This document shows positions 520 through 10,011 of a stretch of 10,959 nt of DNA, piece after piece. The position numbers and the translations under genes were made by a program. Each line of letters begins with the position of its first letter. Positions within the stretch are counted from its first letter, which is position 1. The notes below the pieces were generated by a model. It was not told the origin of the DNA, made no database searches, and saw only the letters and a list, made by a program, of their open reading frames with translations. This DNA is from Candidatus Micrarchaeota archaeon (GTDB taxonomy: Archaea; Micrarchaeota; Micrarchaeia; Norongarragalinales; UBA8480): NCBI GenBank assembly GCA_043805855.1, contig JAZDHP010000050.1, positions 1 through 10,959 of the forward strand, given 5' to 3'.

Positions 520-1155
520 TTAGCACTTGAAATTGTTCACTACGTAATCTGCAACTGGCAAATCTTGAGTTAACTCTTGCGGAATTATTACCATTACCAT
601 TGCAACATATTGCTCGCGTTGTTCGTTTAATCGCTCGCAATTGTACGTTGCTTGGTAAATTGTAAAAGTGGAATTGGAAACGGACGAAAGCGCTGGGAAC
701 GAAGTGACTGTTTTTACTAAATGTGTTGCCACGCCGTTTGCGTTTGTAAACGTACTTGCAACTCCAGTGCTTTGCTCGGCGATTATTTCGTTGAACTGCT
801 GTTGCGCAGTTGTAGTTGTTGAATTGTCAACAAGAACTTCAATTATTTCCGGCATGCTGTTAACCATAGAAGCGTGGGCGCGGAAAACTGCCGTGTCTTC
901 AACTGGCTCTTCTACAATTAACCCTTGTGGATACTGTAAAGAAAAGCCCCATTCTTCGCTGTTGTATTTTAAAAATTTGTGCGTCTCGTTTACAGGCGTT
1001 GGCTTAAAAGACGGAAATAAAGTTTCGCGTGCGCTTGACGGTTTTAACTGTTGTACGCCGTTAAATGCAAATAACCAAATTGCAAAAATAAGCAATATAA
1101 TTAAAGTAACTGCAATGTAAATTCCATTTTTCTCATTTACTTTACGTTCAGCCAC
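520..1155 (-). CDS. Single-TM membrane-anchored protein with a PsbP/DcrB(Mog1)-like extracytoplasmic domain, ~211 aa
   Basis: TM helix GIYIAVTLIILLIFAIWLFAF. Motif KYNSEEWGFSLQYPQG is typical of the start of PsbP-like folds. Three sequons (NET, NST, NST). The ORF track starts at TTG 1206, but GTG at 1155 has AGGTGG 5 nt upstream and overlaps the giant gene's stop (GTGGCTGA), so it is the preferred start. Fold call is motif-based only. Confidence 0.7.
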   Translation of the reverse strand: MAERKVNEKNGIYIAVTLIILLIFAIWLFAFNGVQQLKPSSARETLFPSFKPTPVNETHKFLKYNSEEWGFSLQYPQGLIVEEPVEDTAVFRAHASMVNSMPEIIEVLVDNSTTTTAQQQFNEIIAEQSTGVASTFTNANGVATHLVKTVTSFPALSSVSNSTFTIYQATYNCERLNEQREQYVAMVMVIIPQELTQDLPVADYVVNNFKC

Positions 1156-4100
1156 TTGAACCACCTGCTGTTCCACCAACTGTACCGCTCTTCGTTGCTT
1201 TGCCAATTCCTTTTAATGCACTTTCGCTGCCCTTGTCCATTTCAAAGTCTTCACTTATATATTGGCTAACTTCTTCGCGTGTAATGTCGCCAACTTTGTA
1301 AGCGCCGTTTAAAATTGAACTATCTAGCGGCCTTTCTTCTGGAACCATTATAGAGTCAAAGAACAACTGGGCAGGTAACTTTGGACTGTTTATAACCGCG
1401 AACAAGAAGAAAGAATTGGATTGTAAAACTTGCTTGTAGTTCAATAAACACGCATCAGTACTTGAATCGCATAAATTAGCCAAGTAGAAAGACTCTGACT
1501 TGCATGTGCCATCCGCGTTTTGCCAGCATATCTTGTGAATTGAAGGCAACGTAGTTGCAGTTATTGGATTTTCAATGTGGTAAACGACCAAAACGTTCTT
1601 TGCGCTTTCTGGAACTTTTATTTCAACAGGCTGCACGTCAACATCTAAACCCAATTGAGTTGCAACTTGGGCGAGTAAACCACCAGCTGGACGAGCTACT
1701 TTTTTAGCCGTGCCTTTTATTTTACTCCACGTCGACGCTTTTTCTGCAGCAGTTTGAGTAGCTACAGTACCAACAGCAGTACCCGCTGCACTAACAGCAG
1801 CTGGTTTCAAAGCAGCTTTCGTAGCTTCCTCTAGTTCAGTTAACGCTTTGTTAACATCCTTAACAAAGCCCAGCGTCATTTTTCCATCTTTACCTACCAT
1901 CAGTTCAGTGAAATAAATTTGTTTACTAGCCACTCTCTTTGCAACCGCGTCTTTAACAACCGAAACTATTTTATCATCTTTTCCATTAGCAGCAAGCGCT
2001 TTCAAGTAAACCTCTCTAAGCGTTTGCTCCTGAATTCCAACTCCGTTTCTAAGCTCAGTTCCAAAAGTCATTTTTCCAAAAGATCTATCTAAAGTGGTTA
2101 CAGTCACACTTGCTTTAAGCGCATTAGTATTTCCACTTAACTCATTTACAATTCTTTGCAATTGATACTGATTACGAATATCCGTCCAGAAAGACAATTC
2201 CTTAGGTAAAACCTCCCTTTGGTTAGCTATTTCGGAAACTGCAAATTTAAACACTCCTTCGCCAGCATTTCTTTTTTCAGCTTTTAACAACGCACCAACC
2301 AACTGTTCACCACGATTGGTAAACTTACCCGCTTGCGAAAGTTGCTCATAACTATTAATTTCACTTAACACACTATCTACCGTTAGTGATTTAGACGCAG
2401 CAGCTGCAGTTCCTGTGCTTCCAGGTACGATTGTCTGCTTTGCTCCATATACCGCTGCTCCAGCTGCTCCTGGCGGAATTGCAGGCGATCCATCTCCGAG
2501 CCACGTTTCAACACCGTAAGTTGCTGCAACTGCAAGTGTACTGTAGCCAACCCAACCGCCTATGCTTGGAATTGCTGATCGGAAACTACTACCAGCTGCA
2601 GCAACTCTAGCACCAACTCCTCCCGTTCCTGCAACGCCGACAGGTGCGATTAGCCCGCCAACTGCGCCGAAAACAGCCGCGCGAACGCACCCGTTTAAAA
2701 CAGGACAAGAATCGTAACTACCGCCAGTTGTTAAATATGAACCGCCTTCGCCAACTATGCTTAATCCACATACAACTGCCGCTTGGCCTAAACCTTGGAA
2801 AATCTTCGCGGCAACAGGCGCGCCTATACCAGTAAGCACCGCGCCTATTCCAATTGCAGTGCCTGGACCAAGAATGGTCGTAATTTGTTCAACTGCTCTT
2901 TTGCCACAAAAGTGAGCTAAATTATAATGTTCCGGCAACGTGTATGAAATTTTCGGCGTATTTCTACCGTAAATTGTTTTTAGCAACGCGTTTGTCGTTG
3001 CGATGTCAGTTTTACTTGCCCCTTTTTGATACGGACCAAGCGAAAACCAACCTATAAACGAAGATAAGCCTTCGCCTTTGTTAAACCCAGCGCCTAGCTC
3101 TCTACCTAGATAAATATTGAAATCATCTTGCTTTCCAGCTAGTAACAACGGTGCATTGGCAACGTTGTCCGGACATGACGCAAGTGGAGTTGCACCTGTT
3201 ATTTGAATCTTGTCTTTTGAAGTGTCAACTGTTCCCAAAGCACCTTCAGAACATCCCAGATCAAGCCGCGCTTGAATTGCATAAATTCCACAGCCTTTTA
3301 GTATAGGTACGTTTGCAACATCGTAGACGACGTTTTGCGCAGTTAACGGTTGGCGCTTTACGTACTCTCCAAAATCTTGCTCAGTGTTTGCCAAATGTAT
3401 AATTGTAGTTTTAACGTAATTTGCGCCTGGCCCGCCTGGCGCGCAGAATAACATCCTTGAATCCGAGTCAGCTTTCTCCTTTGCAATTGTTGACAACTCA
3501 GCGATAAACGCATTGAACGAAGCTTGCGCCTGTTCGTAAGTGCAATAGTGTTTTGCGCATTGCGTTACAGGTGCAATTGCAGGAGCTGCGGTTACAATAG
3601 TTGTTTTACCAAACTCATCAGCATCCGCAAATTTAGTTTGTGCAGTTGTTGCGGTACTCGTGTCAATTTCTTGCGGTGCAATTTCTCCCCACGGCGAGTT
3701 CTTGTAAATTTCACTGTTTCCATTGTAAACATTTACCCGCACGGTTTTAGTGTAAACAACTGTTCCGTCAGTGGCGGTTATTGTAAATGACTCTTCTCCA
3801 TTCGTAGTAGTTTGTGGAGTGCAAAAAACGGCCTGTGCTTCGCCTTGCGCCATACTTGAAGGAATTTGACAGTTAACCGCACTTGAACCAGCTACAGTTA
3901 AACTAACTGCATTCTCGTGGTTGTTCACTAAAGTTAAAACACGCTCGTGATCCTCTCCAGTCCCTTTAAACGCAAACACAAATGGCCTCCCAGTTCTCTC
4001 GTTTAGATTATCATTAGAATAAGCGTAATCTACAAAAAATGAACGCATTGCCATGCTAGTTTGCGCTTCTTGGTCGCGGCTGCATTTATTTCCAGGCAAC

Positions 4101-7100
4101 ACGGATATTTTTACAGGTAAACTTACAGAACCAACCCAACCACTGTTGTCAGTTGCTTTGAACTTAACCTCAACAATCTTTTCAATTGGAGTTATAATGC
4201 ATTTATCGTCATGCGTTTCAGGCGGGATTGATAAAGATAGAGAAAACTTGTTGTTACACTCATTGTTTTCAGAAGTAGATAACTTATCCTGAGTGTGAGT
4301 TGTAACTGGCGTTAATTTAAACAATTCACGAGGTACACTTGAATCTGAAACTCTATAAATAAAAGAATCTCCAGCAGGGTAAACAACTTCCTTCCTCTTA
4401 TTAATTAAACATATTTTTTGGTCAGCTGTACGCGGCGACTTTCCTATATCTGCTTCTGTAAATGTAAATGATAATTGTGAACCGTCTTCAGTGCGCGCTT
4501 CTATGCCATAGCCGGCAAATGAAGACACAGATGGAAATATAGATTTACATGAAAGGAACCCAACTCGCTCGCGGCCAGTTACTTCAACTTCCTGCGCTCC
4601 GTTTTCAAGCGGCGGTTGTTTTATTTTTGCAGTTTGCGGGAATTGTATTTTCTTCACATTTGTAACGCCGAGTTTATAGTCGCTCTTGTAAACAAGTTCA
4701 ACGCAATTCGGGAAGTTAGATTGCATTGCACTTTTACGCGGATCTGGAGTTCCAGGCGGTAGAACAAAAGTTGTACTTGCGCGTAGTTGTGTTTGGAACA
4801 GCTGTTCATCTTGTTCAACTTCATTGCACGGGCTTAGAGAAATTTTTCCACCTTGTGAAAGTTCAACTTTCTTTCCAGCAAGCCGTGCGTTTGTAATTGT
4901 AAATTGCCCAGATGCAGACGGAAGAATGTCAGTAATTTGCTGGCGCGAGCCTTTTGACTTTACAGTTAATTGCACGCAGTTTTGCAACGCAATGTTTACA
5001 TTTGCTCCTGATTGCTGCGCTTGTGCTTCTAGCGGTAAGTCAATGTAAACTTCGTCTTCGTAAACAATTTCAAACTTTTCTCCACCAGCTGCCAATCCAA
5101 CGGGAGTTAATCTTTGAATTATTTGAATTGATGTAAACTGTGGAATCGCGTAGGAGTACTGCGTTCCAAAGTTACTTGCAAATTGATTATAACCTTGTTG
5201 CGAGCCATATCCGCTGTACGGGTCAAACGAGCCATAGCGTGGAGTTAGTGAAGAGAAAGGTGAATTTACGCTGTACTGATTATTGTAAGTATTAGCGCCG
5301 TATTGATTGTAACTTGAGCCATAGGGATTAGAGTTAAACGCGTTCATTCCGCCAAACGAATCATAGGGCGAGGACATTGAATTAGTAAACGCGCGTTGTA
5401 TTCCCGGCGGCAAAATTACATCTGCAGTTGGCAGTGTGAATTTAATTGAACCATCTGGAAGTGTTGTCTGCTGTGCGTTTGGCAAAATGCTAATAAATGC
5501 AGGGAATGGAAAGTTAACTTGAAACATGTTGTTGCCGTTGGAAATATGCTGGGGAGCTAGTTCAATAGCACTACCTGCTGGTACAGTTGCACGTTGGTCA
5601 GTTACCATTGCACCTGGGTTGAATACAACTAATTCTGAGTACGGTAGTCTAACTGCTTGTGAGCCGTCTTCTGCAGTTGTCTTTGCGGAAATTGTTCCAG
5701 GGGGAAACATAAAAGTAGAGTCAAACGGGAGTACAACCGCCATTGCACCGGGTACAAAACAGCGCATCTTGGAAGTAGTTGCAACTGTCACTGCAACGTT
5801 TTTTACAGTTGTCATTCCTTGGAAACCAGCGATAAATTCAATTACTCCATTTTCGCTTAAGTCTTCAAAAACACATTGCTGCGCCATGAACAACTGCGAA
5901 GGCGAAGCACTTGCAGTAAATTCAACTGACCCTCCAGCTGGGATAACCGCCGAAGCAGGTTTAACATATAACCCAAGCAAATCATTTTGCTGGTTTACTA
6001 ATACAGGCCGTGGCGCGTTGTTTGTAATTTTTATCTTCTGAGAATCGCGAGATTTACGAGGCAAGTCAAGTGCAAAATCTAGCGAGTCAGCTGAAAAATC
6101 AACAAGTTGTTCAAAAGTTTCCTGCTGTAGAGAAGCAGTTGCTTTGAACGTTACAGTTTCCCGTTGCGAGTGACCTGCAACGCGCGCATTTACGTTAATT
6201 GTTCCATCATATTGCTCGCGAAGCACATTTGGCTTAGAGGCGAATGAAAGCACATTGTCGTTGATTTTTCCAAGTAGAGAAATTGTCTTTGTTTCGCCGC
6301 CTTTTAATTTTACTGTTGATCCGCTTAGCCTTACGTTTGAATATTTCGGCGCGTTGTTTGAAAATGCAGTGAGGGCAACTTTCACCTCTTTGTTTGGAAC
6401 TAAATTAGTAATTGCAAATGAAGCTCCTTCTGTTTCTTCAAATGAGTCAATTGCAATTGACATTACGTTTGTGCGGTCAATTGAAATTATTTGTTTTGCG
6501 TTTGAAACTATTTTACCGCTTTTAGCACGAAAGCCTTCAGCTTGAACACTATAAGAAATGTCTCCAAATGAAGATGGCGCTATTTCTGCAGTATATTCAC
6601 CTGGTTTTTCCTCTTGCGCTTCCGCCTGTGCTTCAAGAACTTCACCTTTTGCAAAAATAACCCTTGCACCCACAACTTTTGCACCAAATGAATCAGTAAC
6701 TTCAATTTTCACTTTGTTATCTTGAAACGCGATTAACTCTTGCGGTTCAACTTTTACTTTTAGCTGGTTGCCAGCGTTTGAAATTACAACGTGTAAATCT
6801 TCTTCAAAAGACGCGCCTCCGCTTGTTGTGAAAGTTATTGAAACGTCGTTTGAAAACTTCACTGCTTTTAGCGAGAAGAAACCTTCGCCGCCAGGCGCAA
6901 CTTTTGCAGTTGCTGAATTACCATTACCACTACCTAGCTGCACTGCATCGCTGTCAGTTTGCAACGAGAGGGAAATTTCCGCGTTTGTTCCGCGCAGTGG
7001 CTGCGGCGGCACAAGCACGCGGTAGTTTAGCTTGAACATTTCAGGCACAACTGCTTCGAACTGCTGGAAGCCGCTTTTCTTACCTGTTGACCCTTCGAAC

Positions 7101-9577
7101 CATAACTCTAGACAAGCGTTTTCACTGCACTTTCCTTCAAAGTGAATTAGGATAGCATCTGCTTCGCTTAACTGCGCGAGGTAAGGAGATTTGGAAACTC
7201 CAGCTGCTGCATCTTCGGGGTTACGGTAAACTTCGCTTGAACCACTTGAAACTGGAACAACGTACGCTGTGCGGTGAAACAGTTCAACATTTGCTTCTTG
7301 AACTGCGCTTGTTTCAATTTGTACTTTTAACTCTTTTGTACCTTCAAATTTATCAAAACTAAACTCCGCCCACTTGAACTTACTACTTGCAAGTGAAGCA
7401 CTTGTGCCAACTGTTGACGGCAACGGCGTTAAATCACCGTTTGCGCTTACGCTCGTGTTAGTTATAGTATTTACATTGTATTCCGCGTCTTGTTCAACTG
7501 GCTCAAAGTAATCTGCAATTGAATAGTCAATTCCACCAATTGCATTGCCGCCATCTGAACTAAAAGAAGTTATAGCAGCTGCACCGCTCTCAATGTCAAC
7601 ATCTTTTTCTCCAACTTGTATAAACGCTTTGCAACTTGTAAATTCAAGCGAAGGCGGGGATTTTAGTAAATATTTTGCAGTGTAGCGCGTTGCTGGGCTT
7701 AGTACAGAAACTCGTTTGTTTTTATCGTTGAAAACCCCAAGGAAAACTAATTCAGTTGAATCTGCAACGTCGCTTGAAATAAGTTCAAACACTTGCGCAT
7801 TGTTGTCACCGGGAACAACGGCTATCTTTGTTGTTAATTGTTCAAAACCAGACGCGGTTACTTTTACATTTACGTCGCCACTTTCAATAACTGCAATGCA
7901 CTGGTTGTTTTTCACTGTGCAGCTTGTTGCGTTGCCTGCGCTTGTAAGTTGAACAACTGCATTTTCAATAGCGTCGCGCGTAAAATGGTCAAGAACAGTT
8001 ACGTTTACAATTCCACTTGCTGGGCTTAATATTAATTCAACTTCTTGTTCGGTTTCATCAGTTTCGCTTGATGGAGTTACATTTACATTAACCTCTCCCT
8101 GGTACTCGCTGTTGCTTGCCTTGAAATTCGCCTCTCCAAGTGGAAGTGATTCAAACCGCGCTTTGCCGTCTAGCATAGTTGTTTTTGAAATTCCAGTTTG
8201 CTTTCCATTAAGAAATAACGCTACTGACACTCCGCCGACTTCGTTGCTGTTGCGATCAATTGTAATTATTGTAATTGCGCCTGAATTTGCACTGCTAGCT
8301 TGGTGCAAGATGAAATTTTGTTCAGTTGCGCTTGTCACTTCTTTTTGTAAAGGTAAATAACCGTCTTTTGAAACTGCAACTAAACACGTTTTACCAAGTT
8401 CAACGTCGAAACCAGCAATTCCACTTTCCGGCGTTTTAACTTCAGTAACATTACCACAGTACAGTGCAACGTTTGGCCTAGTTACTTCGTTTCCATCGTC
8501 GTCAATAATTTTGACAACTATGTTCTTTGAATTTTCAGCAGTGCGCATTGTAAGCCGCGCAACTATTTCTACTTGCGGTTCGTTTACAGTTACACTTGGC
8601 CTAACCCACGTTAAGAAATTAGTCGCAATTACGTTGATTGAAACGTTTGCCCCAACTTCAATTTCAACAGGCAACGCTGAACCGTCTTCGCCAGTTGTTG
8701 AAGAAGTAATTTGGCTGCCTGTAAAGTCGTTGATAAATTTGACAGTCGCGTTTGCAACCGGAGTTAGTCCATCTTCTTGATAAACTCTAACATACACTGG
8801 CGCAGTTCTCGTCTCGCCGTCGCGAAACATTCTAATTGGAACGTTTAAATTGCCAACTCCAATTTCGATAACTTTCACTTCTTGACGGTAACCTAACGCG
8901 CTGGCGATGATTGTATAGTTTGAATTAAACGCAACGTTGAACAACGCGCCGCTAGTTGCGTTTTGAACTTCAATAATTGAACTATTGCCCGCTAACAGCG
9001 TTATATCTGCGCTTGTGGGGCCAGTGATTGAAACTGAAATTGCCGCTAGGGGGTTGTCGTTGCGAGTTAAACTAATTGCAAAAGTTTTCTTGTTTTCGCT
9101 TTCTTTTAAACTAACTTCGCGCGTGGTTGTCTCGTGGTCAGGCGCGTTTACCGTCACCTTTGCACTAGTTGCCGGAATCTTGTCAAACTTCGCCCTTCCG
9201 TCAGCGCCAGTAACTAAATTTTGAGACTGTGTACCGTCTTTGTCAGTGAATTGCAGTTGTACCGCCGCACCTTCGATTGGCACATTGTCAATTCCCTTTA
9301 CTGTAAATTCAAAAGTTCTAGAAACTGGTGTTGAAAAAGATAGAAACGCAACGTAAATTCCAGCGACTATTAATAATAGTAAAACAATTAGCGCGGGTAA
9401 TGGAGGGATTCCTTTTTGTTCAAAGAAGTCACTTACCTTTCTTAATGGTATTCCTTTGTCGTCGCTCCAGTCTAGGAACTCTTGCCATTTGATTGATAGG
9501 CTTTCTAGGAACTCGTCGATTTTTTCACGTAGAGTAAGTGAAGACTCTTCTTTAACCCCAGAATCAAAATCCGCCAA
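1148..9577 (-). CDS. Giant (2809 aa) N-terminally anchored cell-surface protein with carboxypeptidase-regulatory-like repeats and a distal hydrophobic/helical module
   Basis: Uninterrupted 8430-nt ORF. TTG start directly preceded by an in-frame TAG, with AGGGGT just upstream. TM helix at aa ~60-79, six beta-sandwich repeats at aa ~87-599, further beta-rich domains, many paired Cys, and a Gly/Ala hydrophobic block at aa 2232-2379. Confidence 0.93.
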   Translation of the reverse strand: MADFDSGVKEESSLTLREKIDEFLESLSIKWQEFLDWSDDKGIPLRKVSDFFEQKGIPPLPALIVLLLLIVAGIYVAFLSFSTPVSRTFEFTVKGIDNVPIEGAAVQLQFTDKDGTQSQNLVTGADGRAKFDKIPATSAKVTVNAPDHETTTREVSLKESENKKTFAISLTRNDNPLAAISVSITGPTSADITLLAGNSSIIEVQNATSGALFNVAFNSNYTIIASALGYRQEVKVIEIGVGNLNVPIRMFRDGETRTAPVYVRVYQEDGLTPVANATVKFINDFTGSQITSSTTGEDGSALPVEIEVGANVSINVIATNFLTWVRPSVTVNEPQVEIVARLTMRTAENSKNIVVKIIDDDGNEVTRPNVALYCGNVTEVKTPESGIAGFDVELGKTCLVAVSKDGYLPLQKEVTSATEQNFILHQASSANSGAITIITIDRNSNEVGGVSVALFLNGKQTGISKTTMLDGKARFESLPLGEANFKASNSEYQGEVNVNVTPSSETDETEQEVELILSPASGIVNVTVLDHFTRDAIENAVVQLTSAGNATSCTVKNNQCIAVIESGDVNVKVTASGFEQLTTKIAVVPGDNNAQVFELISSDVADSTELVFLGVFNDKNKRVSVLSPATRYTAKYLLKSPPSLEFTSCKAFIQVGEKDVDIESGAAAITSFSSDGGNAIGGIDYSIADYFEPVEQDAEYNVNTITNTSVSANGDLTPLPSTVGTSASLASSKFKWAEFSFDKFEGTKELKVQIETSAVQEANVELFHRTAYVVPVSSGSSEVYRNPEDAAAGVSKSPYLAQLSEADAILIHFEGKCSENACLELWFEGSTGKKSGFQQFEAVVPEMFKLNYRVLVPPQPLRGTNAEISLSLQTDSDAVQLGSGNGNSATAKVAPGGEGFFSLKAVKFSNDVSITFTTSGGASFEEDLHVVISNAGNQLKVKVEPQELIAFQDNKVKIEVTDSFGAKVVGARVIFAKGEVLEAQAEAQEEKPGEYTAEIAPSSFGDISYSVQAEGFRAKSGKIVSNAKQIISIDRTNVMSIAIDSFEETEGASFAITNLVPNKEVKVALTAFSNNAPKYSNVRLSGSTVKLKGGETKTISLLGKINDNVLSFASKPNVLREQYDGTINVNARVAGHSQRETVTFKATASLQQETFEQLVDFSADSLDFALDLPRKSRDSQKIKITNNAPRPVLVNQQNDLLGLYVKPASAVIPAGGSVEFTASASPSQLFMAQQCVFEDLSENGVIEFIAGFQGMTTVKNVAVTVATTSKMRCFVPGAMAVVLPFDSTFMFPPGTISAKTTAEDGSQAVRLPYSELVVFNPGAMVTDQRATVPAGSAIELAPQHISNGNNMFQVNFPFPAFISILPNAQQTTLPDGSIKFTLPTADVILPPGIQRAFTNSMSSPYDSFGGMNAFNSNPYGSSYNQYGANTYNNQYSVNSPFSSLTPRYGSFDPYSGYGSQQGYNQFASNFGTQYSYAIPQFTSIQIIQRLTPVGLAAGGEKFEIVYEDEVYIDLPLEAQAQQSGANVNIALQNCVQLTVKSKGSRQQITDILPSASGQFTITNARLAGKKVELSQGGKISLSPCNEVEQDEQLFQTQLRASTTFVLPPGTPDPRKSAMQSNFPNCVELVYKSDYKLGVTNVKKIQFPQTAKIKQPPLENGAQEVEVTGRERVGFLSCKSIFPSVSSFAGYGIEARTEDGSQLSFTFTEADIGKSPRTADQKICLINKRKEVVYPAGDSFIYRVSDSSVPRELFKLTPVTTHTQDKLSTSENNECNNKFSLSLSIPPETHDDKCIITPIEKIVEVKFKATDNSGWVGSVSLPVKISVLPGNKCSRDQEAQTSMAMRSFFVDYAYSNDNLNERTGRPFVFAFKGTGEDHERVLTLVNNHENAVSLTVAGSSAVNCQIPSSMAQGEAQAVFCTPQTTTNGEESFTITATDGTVVYTKTVRVNVYNGNSEIYKNSPWGEIAPQEIDTSTATTAQTKFADADEFGKTTIVTAAPAIAPVTQCAKHYCTYEQAQASFNAFIAELSTIAKEKADSDSRMLFCAPGGPGANYVKTTIIHLANTEQDFGEYVKRQPLTAQNVVYDVANVPILKGCGIYAIQARLDLGCSEGALGTVDTSKDKIQITGATPLASCPDNVANAPLLLAGKQDDFNIYLGRELGAGFNKGEGLSSFIGWFSLGPYQKGASKTDIATTNALLKTIYGRNTPKISYTLPEHYNLAHFCGKRAVEQITTILGPGTAIGIGAVLTGIGAPVAAKIFQGLGQAAVVCGLSIVGEGGSYLTTGGSYDSCPVLNGCVRAAVFGAVGGLIAPVGVAGTGGVGARVAAAGSSFRSAIPSIGGWVGYSTLAVAATYGVETWLGDGSPAIPPGAAGAAVYGAKQTIVPGSTGTAAAASKSLTVDSVLSEINSYEQLSQAGKFTNRGEQLVGALLKAEKRNAGEGVFKFAVSEIANQREVLPKELSFWTDIRNQYQLQRIVNELSGNTNALKASVTVTTLDRSFGKMTFGTELRNGVGIQEQTLREVYLKALAANGKDDKIVSVVKDAVAKRVASKQIYFTELMVGKDGKMTLGFVKDVNKALTELEEATKAALKPAAVSAAGTAVGTVATQTAAEKASTWSKIKGTAKKVARPAGGLLAQVATQLGLDVDVQPVEIKVPESAKNVLVVYHIENPITATTLPSIHKICWQNADGTCKSESFYLANLCDSSTDACLLNYKQVLQSNSFFLFAVINSPKLPAQLFFDSIMVPEERPLDSSILNGAYKVGDITREEVSQYISEDFEMDKGSESALKGIGKATKSGTVGGTAGGSSG
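1161..1166 (-). promoter_or_regulatory. Shine-Dalgarno-like site for the GTG at 1155
   Basis: Minus strand reads AGGTGG-TTCAA-GTG, matching part of the archaeal GGAGGTGA consensus. Confidence 0.55.
7781..9319 (-). repeat. Six tandem ~80-aa carboxypeptidase-regulatory-like / prealbumin-like beta-sandwich domains (protein-level repeats)
   Basis: Recurring pattern V.V.D..G.P(I/V)..A.V.L ... T..DG.A.F ... V...G(Y/F), e.g. NVPIEGAAVQL..TGADGRAKF, TPVANATVKF..TGEDGSA, NEVGGVSVAL..TMLDGKARF, DAIENAVVQL..TASGF. A seventh similar unit lies at ~6510-6720. Confidence 0.75.
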
Positions 9578-9589: not shown

Positions 9590-9673
9590 ACAAATAAAGG
9601 AAAAACTAGCTTAAAAAAGCGAGCTTCTACAGGAGGAAAAACACCAATAAGCATAAAAACAAAAAACGTTAGG

Positions 9674-9700
9674 TGAAATTATATTTTCACCATATTTAAA
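9674..9700 (-). promoter_or_regulatory. TATA-N3-operator module 1 (degenerate operator TGAAATTATATTTTCA)
   Basis: Palindrome 9674-9689 (extends to GGTGAAA-N6-TTTCACC, 9672-9691), then 3 nt, then TATTTAAA 9693-9700 (TTTAAATA on minus). Confidence 0.6.
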
Positions 9701-9708
9701 CACCAAAG

Positions 9709-9799: not shown

Positions 9800-9949
9800 C
9801 TTACACCTCGCGACTCGCACCTAACAAGCGCCTAAAGGCGCTGGCTTATCTGACGCTCGTCTCTTGCAAGCGAGGTGTAAGGCCTTAACGAAGCGCGCTT
9901 CGTTAAGTAAAGCAATTTTGAACTTCACAAAAGCGCAATAAACGCGCCC
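9800..9949 (-). ncRNA. Candidate structured ncRNA, leader or REP-like element
   Basis: 12-bp perfect stem 9800-9811/9870-9881 enclosing hairpin AGCGCC-TAAA-GGCGCT (9827-9842); 24-bp perfect palindrome 9884-9907; hairpin 9931-9949. Additional pairs are G-U only on the minus strand. No family recognised. Confidence 0.4.
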
Positions 9950-9969
9950 TACAATATAAAAACAAGTAG

Positions 9970-9996
9970 TGAAAGTATACTTTCAGCCTATTTAAA
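9970..9996 (-). promoter_or_regulatory. TATA-N3-operator module 2 (perfect 16-bp palindrome TGAAAGTATACTTTCA)
   Basis: Palindrome 9970-9985, then 3 nt, then TATTTAAA 9989-9996; same spacing as module 1. Confidence 0.65.
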
Positions 9997-10011
9997 TACA
10001 AAACAATAAAG

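Follow-up and report, generated by a model that had tools for sequence, protein, structure and literature searches.

The giant C locus

The locus described here raises the question of why a giant archaeal surface protein should carry N-glycosylation sequons (N-X-S/T) at its base and none along the rest of its length. Descriptions of archaeal surface proteins usually stress their wealth of glycans, and the protein, termed giant C, is a strong and conserved case of the opposite that can be read from sequence alone. The window, meaning the whole stretch of DNA that was analyzed, is a complete 10,959-base contig of a 1.03 Mb genome, and its features are collected in Table 1.

Table 1. Features of the giant C gene and its neighbor in the window (aa numbers refer to giant C; sequons are given as observed versus expected or as their ratio, O/E)
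Feature	Positions	Strand	Basis or remark
Giant C gene, 2809 aa, single-anchor (type II) surface protein, one of three paralogues	1148..9577	-	ORF; orthologues
Acidic N-terminal piece, aa 1-60, predicted cytoplasmic, conserved W..F..W..KGIP	9398..9577	-	topology suggested by the single strong hydrophobic segment
Membrane anchor, aa 63-82	9332..9391	-	hydropathy 2.93 over 19 aa; in full-length orthologues
Stalk, aa 85-900, CarboxypepD_reg/Ig-like domains, sequons tolerated	6878..9325	-	ten sequons, aa 198-707
Sequon-free stretch, aa 710-2809, 0/103 Asn	1151..7450	-	family ban from about aa 900
All-beta Ig-like domain chain, aa 901-1390	5408..6877	-	family O/E 0.18
Pro/Gly beta-repeat shaft, aa 1280-1750, variable length	4328..5740	-	no Pfam match
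Low-complexity Y/S/N/G/Q linker, aa 1391-1480	5138..5407	-	0 vs 23.4 sequons, 41 orthologues
Cys-clamped, Gly/Ala-rich, nearly uncharged helical hairpin, aa 2221-2313	2639..2917	-	0 vs 17.4, 41 orthologues
Variable helical insert, aa 2314-2640, almost Cys-free	1658..2638	-	0 vs 56.0, 41 orthologues
Cys-rich C-terminal beta domain, aa 2641-2778	1244..1657	-	family O/E 0.14
PsbP-like membrane-anchored gene downstream of giant C, conserved neighbor	520..1206	-	internal control

A divergent intergenic region of the window holds two 46-nt stretches (9662-9707 and 9958-10003), 76% alike and each with TGAAA-TATA-TTTCA palindromes and TATTTAAA boxes, which are candidate promoters with a shared regulator site. 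Intergenic hairpins occur at 9800-9911, with 12-bp perfect arms (9800-9811/9870-9881) and a palindrome at 9884-9907; copies of the part at 9870-9915 lie on eight or more other contigs, and it probably belongs to a mini-repeat family of the genome. No Rfam matches were found inside the window.

Sequon counts in giant C

The initial annotation had listed ten sequons within aa 198-709 and none beyond, with about 107 distal Asn and about 16 sites expected. Automated counting with the regular expression N[^P][ST] returns exactly those ten, at aa 198, 206, 220, 276, 311, 376, 499, 525, 549 and 707. Between aa 712 and 2809, where S+T make up 16.4% of residues, there are 107 Asn, of which 103 are not followed by Pro, and none of these begins a sequon (16.7 expected). 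Shuffling of this part yields a mean of 16.65 sequons and a minimum of 5, with zero reached in none of 20,000 shuffles, and local shuffles over 30 residues give a mean of 17.6 and a minimum of 4. The longest sequon-free gap in 20,000 shuffles of the whole protein is 1363 residues, and a gap of 2098 was never reached. It is also the largest in the genome when measured by expected sites (17.0, followed by a runner-up with 11.6).

The absence is confined to a single spacing. Ser or Thr follows the 107 distal Asn 14 times at +1, never at +2, and 15, 17, 18 and 21 times at +3, +4, +5 and +6, such that the N-X-X-S/T control proposed along with the claim is normal (15/107) while the sequon position is empty. 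When 2400 spaced residue pairs of the distal part are ranked by depletion, N.S and N.T take the two lowest places. Reading the giant C DNA in its five non-coding frames gives 85 sequon motifs where 81.8 are expected, with one frame low (2 versus 7.8), and therefore a DNA motif is not what is avoided. Chance, composition or avoidance of a DNA motif as the cause is refuted by the shuffles, the motif controls and the orthologues described below, and retains hardly any probability. The proximal part has 10 sequons versus 8.2 expected, which is no excess.

Conservation across the order

Matches to the distal region of giant C were found in 61 of 68 genomes of its order. A profile built on aa 590-1390 found a match in each of the 49 genomes sampled from the order, four of these matches being weak and probably due to paralogues or fragments; of 352 Micrarchaeota genomes sampled from elsewhere in the phylum, none matched. 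Two homologues that carry names come from Candidatus Micrarchaeota, and the assignment to this phylum follows from them. An orthologue set of 41 sequences was assembled from giant C itself and loci from 40 of 60 other genomes, chosen for long open frames. Because kin are not independent, reliance is placed on consistency rather than on pooled p-values.

With the boundary drawn at aa 710, as initially annotated, 39 of the 41 sequences could be mapped, and the proximal part holds 215 sequons versus 193.7 expected and the distal part 129 versus 592.0. Alignment with a boundary at aa 760 gives 231 versus 218.0 proximally (O/E about 1.06) and 135 versus 616.5 distally (O/E 0.22), with the distal ratio below the proximal one in 36 of 39 sequences; the exceptions are two sequon-less proteins and L038. 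Positive selection for glycans on the base was considered and is unsupported by this proximal ratio. A binned family profile places the fall in sequon O/E at aa 800-900, and from this profile the boundary was moved post hoc to aa 900. Divided there, all 25 genera have the lower ratio in the distal part (38 of the 41 sequences being long enough), with medians of 1.11 proximally and 0.06 distally. Thus, the partition is repeated in homologues, but the family boundary lies nearer aa 800-900 than aa 710.

The loss in orthologues is specific to the glycosylation motif. Distal N-P-S/T is spared (45 versus 39.5 expected), and the look-alike motifs S/T-X-N, Q-X-S/T and D-X-S/T have ratios of 0.91, 1.04 and 1.11. 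Mean distal identity between genera is 24%. N and S/T exclude each other column by column (71 versus 218.7 expected), and a control with D gives 359 versus 351.1. The leftover sequons have no bias toward poor context, Pro at +3 being found after 1 of 100 distal sequons and 5 of 266 proximal ones. In the stalk, only the N276 sequon is kept in 24 of 41 orthologues, and counts in two distant homologues of the stalk are neutral (21 versus 18.3 and 14 versus 14.6 expected).

Seven orthologues are relaxed (L011, L020, L024, L032, L039, L040 and L046), with distal ratios of 0.5-0.9, and three further database homologues lack the depletion in aa 901-2220. In six orthologues the base is almost sequon-free too, with 0-1 sequon. 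L014, L016, L018, L019, L023 and L027, from two genera, have 0-2 sequons across a full protein of 2800-3300 residues. A quick tree of the homologues follows families, and because its groups were defined by the trait it is used descriptively only.

Since the loss in orthologues is specific and cytoplasmic proteins are neutral (see below), selection has acted against N-glycans rather than on composition, as the initial annotation had proposed for the distal part. Very probably, purifying selection has removed N-X-S/T from the distal 1900-4300 residues across the whole Micrarchaeota order.

Export and controls from the proteome

Giant C has one N-terminal anchor only, which predicts export past the oligosaccharyltransferase. 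The aglB gene, named as a check when the pattern was first described, is present in this genome; it is cut by the end of contig C38, retains its WWDYG motif and was recovered by tblastn with AglB of relatives (E to 4e-71). The AglB core Pfam match of the fragment falls slightly below the cut-off, and an STT3 family search of the genome missed the gene. An STT3 match occurs in 22 of 30 relatives, and most genomes with a relaxed giant C keep an STT3/aglB match. Passages of a study of a cultured Micrarchaeon describe a glycosylated S-layer protein and expressed N-glycosylation genes (10.1101/2021.04.28.441871).

The proteome control comprises 1010 ORFs from an in-house ORF caller. Of these, 712 lack a hydrophobic segment and contain 863 sequons versus 872.8 expected (O/E 0.99), so that the proteome-wide depletion that would have undercut the claim is absent. 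Predicted exported proteins average 1.11 and are over-dispersed (chi2/df 3.9-7.3, versus 0.89 for those 712 ORFs). Long surface proteins other than giant C are enriched over 1000-1300 residues (69 versus 37.5 and 53 versus 26.5 expected), and further exported proteins of this genome also hold sequon-free parts. The PsbP-like neighbor of giant C is enriched as well, with 54 versus 28.3 in 28 homologues. A sequon-rich 1021-aa protein has a match in 2 of 68 genomes only and is unusable as a family control. A cytoplasmic location of the distal part was rejected, because it predicts neutrality.

Strictness of the ban by region

The predicted structure of aa 590-1390 is an all-beta chain (pLDDT 85), for which Foldseek returns generic tandem Ig-like matches only. 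Across the 41 sequences, aa 901-1390 hold 32 sequons versus 182.4 expected, and loops (9 versus 69.0, 0.13) are purged along with strands (17 versus 75.6, 0.22). Insertion columns have 15 versus 95.4 (0.16), conserved distal Asn columns 1 versus 83.0 and the C-terminal tail 0 versus 7.7. Given that exposed loops, inserts and linkers are all purged, the ban would be set by quaternary context and not by fold.

The Pro/Gly shaft is 471 residues long in giant C and 2300 in L029, where it is also without a sequon. Pfam searches with five shaft segments gave no matches, and an Atlas search with the shaft gave no usable match.

The model of aa 1890-2809 (pLDDT 65) has a Cys-rich tip domain, three helices that form the Gly/Ala hairpin, a helical insert of low confidence and, at the C-terminus, a beta domain. 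Hairpin and insert have no sequon in any of the 41 orthologues (73.4 expected), nor in 12 additional homologues from databases, which partly overlap with the 41 (23.0 expected). The hairpin character is kept in 35 of 35 aligned C-termini, with moderate hydropathy (best 19-residue mean 1.3-2.15), and the insert ranges from 66 to 562 residues. Cys is nearly excluded from the insert (7 in 11,076 residues, 0.06%, versus 1.7-4.6% in the flanks). Since purging requires that a segment has passed AglB, hairpin and insert are presumably exported and not looped into the cell's own cytoplasm.

Foldseek found no match to the C-terminal model at E<=0.001, and the best VIA matches (Z 6.6) are generic helical bundles and Ig-like domains; such weak matching is no proof of a new fold. 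A homotrimer prediction for aa 1999-2324 scored 0.00 and is uninformative either way. Among 1.84 billion representatives, the tip domain matches 15 proteins, consisting of 14 family members and one repeat-rich protein that has no BLAST match to proteins of this genome.

Paralogous giants and a filament gene cluster

Giants A and B share aa 1-1110 with giant C. In 14 paralogous giants, taken from fetched neighborhoods and this genome, 137 sequons lie before aa 1100 (115.7 expected) and 52 after it (128.9 expected), and the boundary of the ban differs among giants, at about 900, 1120 and 1330. Giant C and paralogues occupy the same stretch in G004, G006, G017, G020, G023, G002 and G041. Where upstream DNA is long enough, at 32 loci, giant C comes directly after a giant paralogue in 7, and in four of the seven the match is to the very paralogue that served as reference. 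In this genome (G000), giant C has its own contig, behind an unrelated ATPase gene and away from the cluster.

Giant A adjoins a gene for a 495-aa pilin-like protein and lies near a T2SSE ATPase gene and a single T2SSF-like platform gene on G000:C5, a layout of giant A, pilin-like, ATPase and platform genes that recurs in many relatives. The ATPase matches T2SSE (E 1e-22) at aa 400-600 of 757 and thus has a long N-terminal part. The 695-aa T2SSF-like gene on this contig matches below the cut-off, and a platform gene match is found in 65 of 68 genomes.

Sequon loss extends to several of these neighbors. Five giant-linked pilin-like genes of this genome have no sequon where 10.4 are expected, a sixth that was missed by the pattern search has 1 versus 1.7, and seven other class III-like genes have 33 versus 16.8. 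In relatives, the 495-aa family has 40 versus 106.1 (32 sequences). Five linked minor pilin-like families have observed/expected counts of 3/11.5, 5/14.2, 9/16.3, 12/16.3 and 16/15.4, the last two without clear depletion. A linked, C-anchored 1354-aa family, present in 65 of 68 genomes, has 96 versus 215.7 at 25 loci, with a +3 control of 0.77.

Several further features of the cluster were observed. A second class III pilin-like set (G000:C64:12387-19983) is unlike the giant-linked set and is sequon-enriched, with 28 versus 14.8. Giant B occurs in this genome as two N-terminal fragments, both with 59% identity to the one copy that G002 has, and as one C-terminal fragment with 0 versus 9.4 sequons; the fragments (G000:C5:1-5139, C57:931-6360 and C11:2-3673) represent a duplication broken by assembly. 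In L018, L019 and L027 (genus g18), ORFs of 216-283 residues just upstream of giant C weakly resemble the N-terminal part of giant A. Residues 1180-1300 of giant A (e.g. G000:C5:15791-23071) are uncharged, low-complexity Gln/Gly/Tyr sequence with CxxC motifs, and akin Y/G/Q linkers occur in giants B and C. A small exosortase/archaeosortase-like gene (G000:C5:25325-25819) adjoins the pilin-like gene and giant A, and is nearby in G002, G004 and G017. The secretion ATPase (G000:C5:30967-33240) is 757 residues long here versus 1027-1258 in relatives, which suggests an intein or a split gene.

What keeps the distal part bare

It appears moderately probable that shaft and tip are kept bare because they pack in, or slide through, a pilus-linked surface apparatus. 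As topology and the presence of aglB suggest, Sec would export giant C with its N-terminus held in the membrane, the entire ectodomain would pass AglB, and any N-X-S/T on it would be glycosylated. The membrane-near Ig stalk would tolerate glycans, and its sequons may be occupied, as the initial annotation proposed for the base; their neutral density, the six orthologues with 0-1 sequon there and the limited keeping of sites other than N276 speak for caution. Shaft and tip may pack against giants A and B and against the pilin-like subunits of an envelope apparatus linked to a type IV filament, with which giant C would then assemble, or may instead slide through a narrow opening in that apparatus. 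Gene clustering and the shared depletion point to this step. Against it stand the position of giant C outside the cluster in this assembly, the small share of loci at which it directly follows a giant paralogue, the two linked minor pilin-like families without clear depletion, the relaxed orthologues and homologues, most of whose genomes have aglB in the case of the orthologues, and the unbiased context of the leftover distal sequons. The strictest ban, in hairpin and insert, may mark the business end, most likely a tip whose hairpin would contact a membrane.

A less exacting account is an ordinary purge of buried sites, in which glycans on distal Asn would disturb folding and no special geometry is needed. 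The principle is established, with a whole-protein precedent in BiP (PMC5562741), the near-total loss at conserved distal Asn columns agrees with it, and sequon-free parts occur in many of the genome's further exported proteins. However, sequons in eukaryotes vanish from buried sites and interfaces, and burial concerns about 17% of the sequon Asn of non-secreted proteins (PMC5562741), versus a loss of 78-93% here. Moreover, low-pLDDT, poorly conserved and inserted segments are purged equally or more, and the same kind of Ig-like domains is neutral in the stalk, making this account improbable. A loss of at least 78% that includes linkers exceeds what burial of about 17% could provide, and interfaces or passage through an opening would therefore be needed. 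Alternatively, the S-layer of the cell itself might set the rule for every protein, with glycans allowed beneath it and banned on whatever has to cross it. Six C-anchored proteins of the genome mirror the pattern, with sequons at most 100-350 residues from the anchor. One C-anchored family repeats it mildly (near the anchor 107 versus 97.4, 1.10; far 41 versus 79.5, 0.52; 24/29), but a second is mixed (near 63 versus 73.0, 0.86; far 75 versus 133.6, 0.56; 11/17), with two members enriched far out; 1 of 30 loci, which lacked the anchor, was dropped from the first family and 13 of 30 from the second. A general distance gradient exists and is weaker than the ban in giant C. The long surface proteins enriched along their length and the shifting boundary among giants speak against such a rule, which is thus quite improbable as the explanation. 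Stealth, with exposed glycans avoided since viruses or host lectins recognize them, is very improbable: S-layer glycans are reported to act as virus receptors (PMC13437554), but heavily sequon-enriched long surface proteins and pilins are found in the same cell.

A more elaborate possibility, although an unlikely one, is a penetrating spike with cargo, in which the distal part threads a target S-layer where glycans would block passage, the hairpin inserts in the target membrane and the Cys-free insert is delivered to, or faces, the target cytoplasm. Consistent with this, the ban in hairpin and insert is absolute even where the shaft is relaxed, a segment looping into the cell's own cytoplasm would be neutral, the insert is depleted of Cys relative to its flanks, and shaft length varies ruler-like from 470 to 2300 residues. 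Parts of the DPANN literature describe a host S-layer pore of 3.5 nm (PMC11329633) and attachment filaments of unidentified protein (PMC11420986), and Atlas neighbors with PT-TG (0.85) and DUF637 (0.84) fall short of the 0.9 mark and are no more than leads. On the other hand, the hairpin is only moderately hydrophobic, none of 35 C-terminal parts has a Pfam enzyme or toxin domain, folded and disulfide-bearing Ig domains would be hard to thread, and some Micrarchaeota orders may be host-independent, as stated in part of PMC12892359. Tight packing, oligomerization and threading through a host layer, as initially annotated for the distal part, are candidate reasons for the ban, and host threading is plausible. 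It is a rather doubtful extension that giant C is the penetrating subunit of an order-wide, pilus-driven and previously undescribed Micrarchaeota contact machine, in which a glycan-tolerant stalk would span the own envelope, a bare, length-setting shaft would reach the target cell, and the disulfide-clamped hairpin would enter the target membrane with the variable Cys-free domain. If so, sequon purging would serve generally as a sequence signal by which the components of DPANN host-contact machines could be found.

Significance and comparison with known systems

The proteins of DPANN attachment structures are described as an open question in a section of PMC11420986. A purged region must have met AglB, and purging therefore fixes topology and marks surfaces that are unable to carry bulk. 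The same read-out flags the paralogous giants and pilin-like partners, providing a parts list for a surface machine of an uncultured order. No report of the giant C family or of sequon purging in archaeal proteins was found in the full-text literature, a scope outside which most subscription journals lie; the principle is known from eukaryotes, and neither the family nor a purge on the scale of whole domains in a giant protein of archaea turned up in the literature covered.

Polymorphic toxins end in a variable toxin domain that is preceded by hydrophobic translocation helices, and the next gene encodes a variable immunity protein. Giant C shares with them, and with contact-dependent delivery systems, hydrophobic helices ahead of a variable domain; unlike in a polymorphic toxin, its variable part is internal and followed by a conserved domain, and the next gene is the conserved PsbP-like one. 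The SPEARE giants of Nanohaloarchaeota contain protease and endonuclease domains within the giant, of which Pfam detects none in giant C, returning Ig-like stalk domains only. In Plasmodium and Toxoplasma, Bushkin and coworkers reportedly argued in 2010 that N-glycans are selected against in proteins threaded into the apicoplast. The likeness is that proteins crossing a further membrane lose sequons, whereas the setting there is import into a eukaryotic organelle, with no surface apparatus.

The nearest match to the gene cluster is the archaeal T4F system 2 (PMC13705601), whose loci likewise have a single platform gene, an ATPase with a long N-terminal part, several pilin-like genes and large Ig-rich adhesin-like proteins nearby. 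Its main-text passages place it mainly in Methanobacteriati and name neither Micrarchaeota nor type II-anchored giants, a hydrophobic hairpin or sequon loss. A large protein inside the locus is seen with giant A in many genomes and with giant C in some, this assembly not among them. DPANN attachment organelles and nanotubes, as described in parts of PMC11420986 and PMC11329633, are also large envelope-spanning structures of small archaea with unidentified proteins, but they occur in Nanobdellota or are host-made, while the giant C profile matched none of the 352 Micrarchaeota genomes sampled beyond its order. S-layer and Ig-rich surface glycoproteins of DPANN share Ig-like folds, export and N-glycosylation machinery with giant C, but in the relevant passages have many predicted sites along their length (10.1101/2021.04.28.441871, 10.1101/2023.10.27.564410), whereas giant C is purged over two thirds. 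It lacks the S-layer domains and the sequons throughout that typify archaeal S-layer glycoproteins.

The closest parallel to the purge itself comes from eukaryotic secretory proteins, which in the sections of Medus et al. 2017 on this point are under negative selection on sequons, the ER Hsp70/BiP being sequon-free (PMC5562741). Both cases, as far as those sections go, involve loss of N-X-S/T with N-P-S/T spared, neutral cytosolic proteins, and exported proteins that are enriched as well as depleted. The two differ in that giant C is archaeal and has lost its sequons over a contiguous 2000-4300 residues of one protein. The loss in giant C is not confined to the core of the fold but extends to loops, inserts and linkers, with a sharp partition within the ectodomain.
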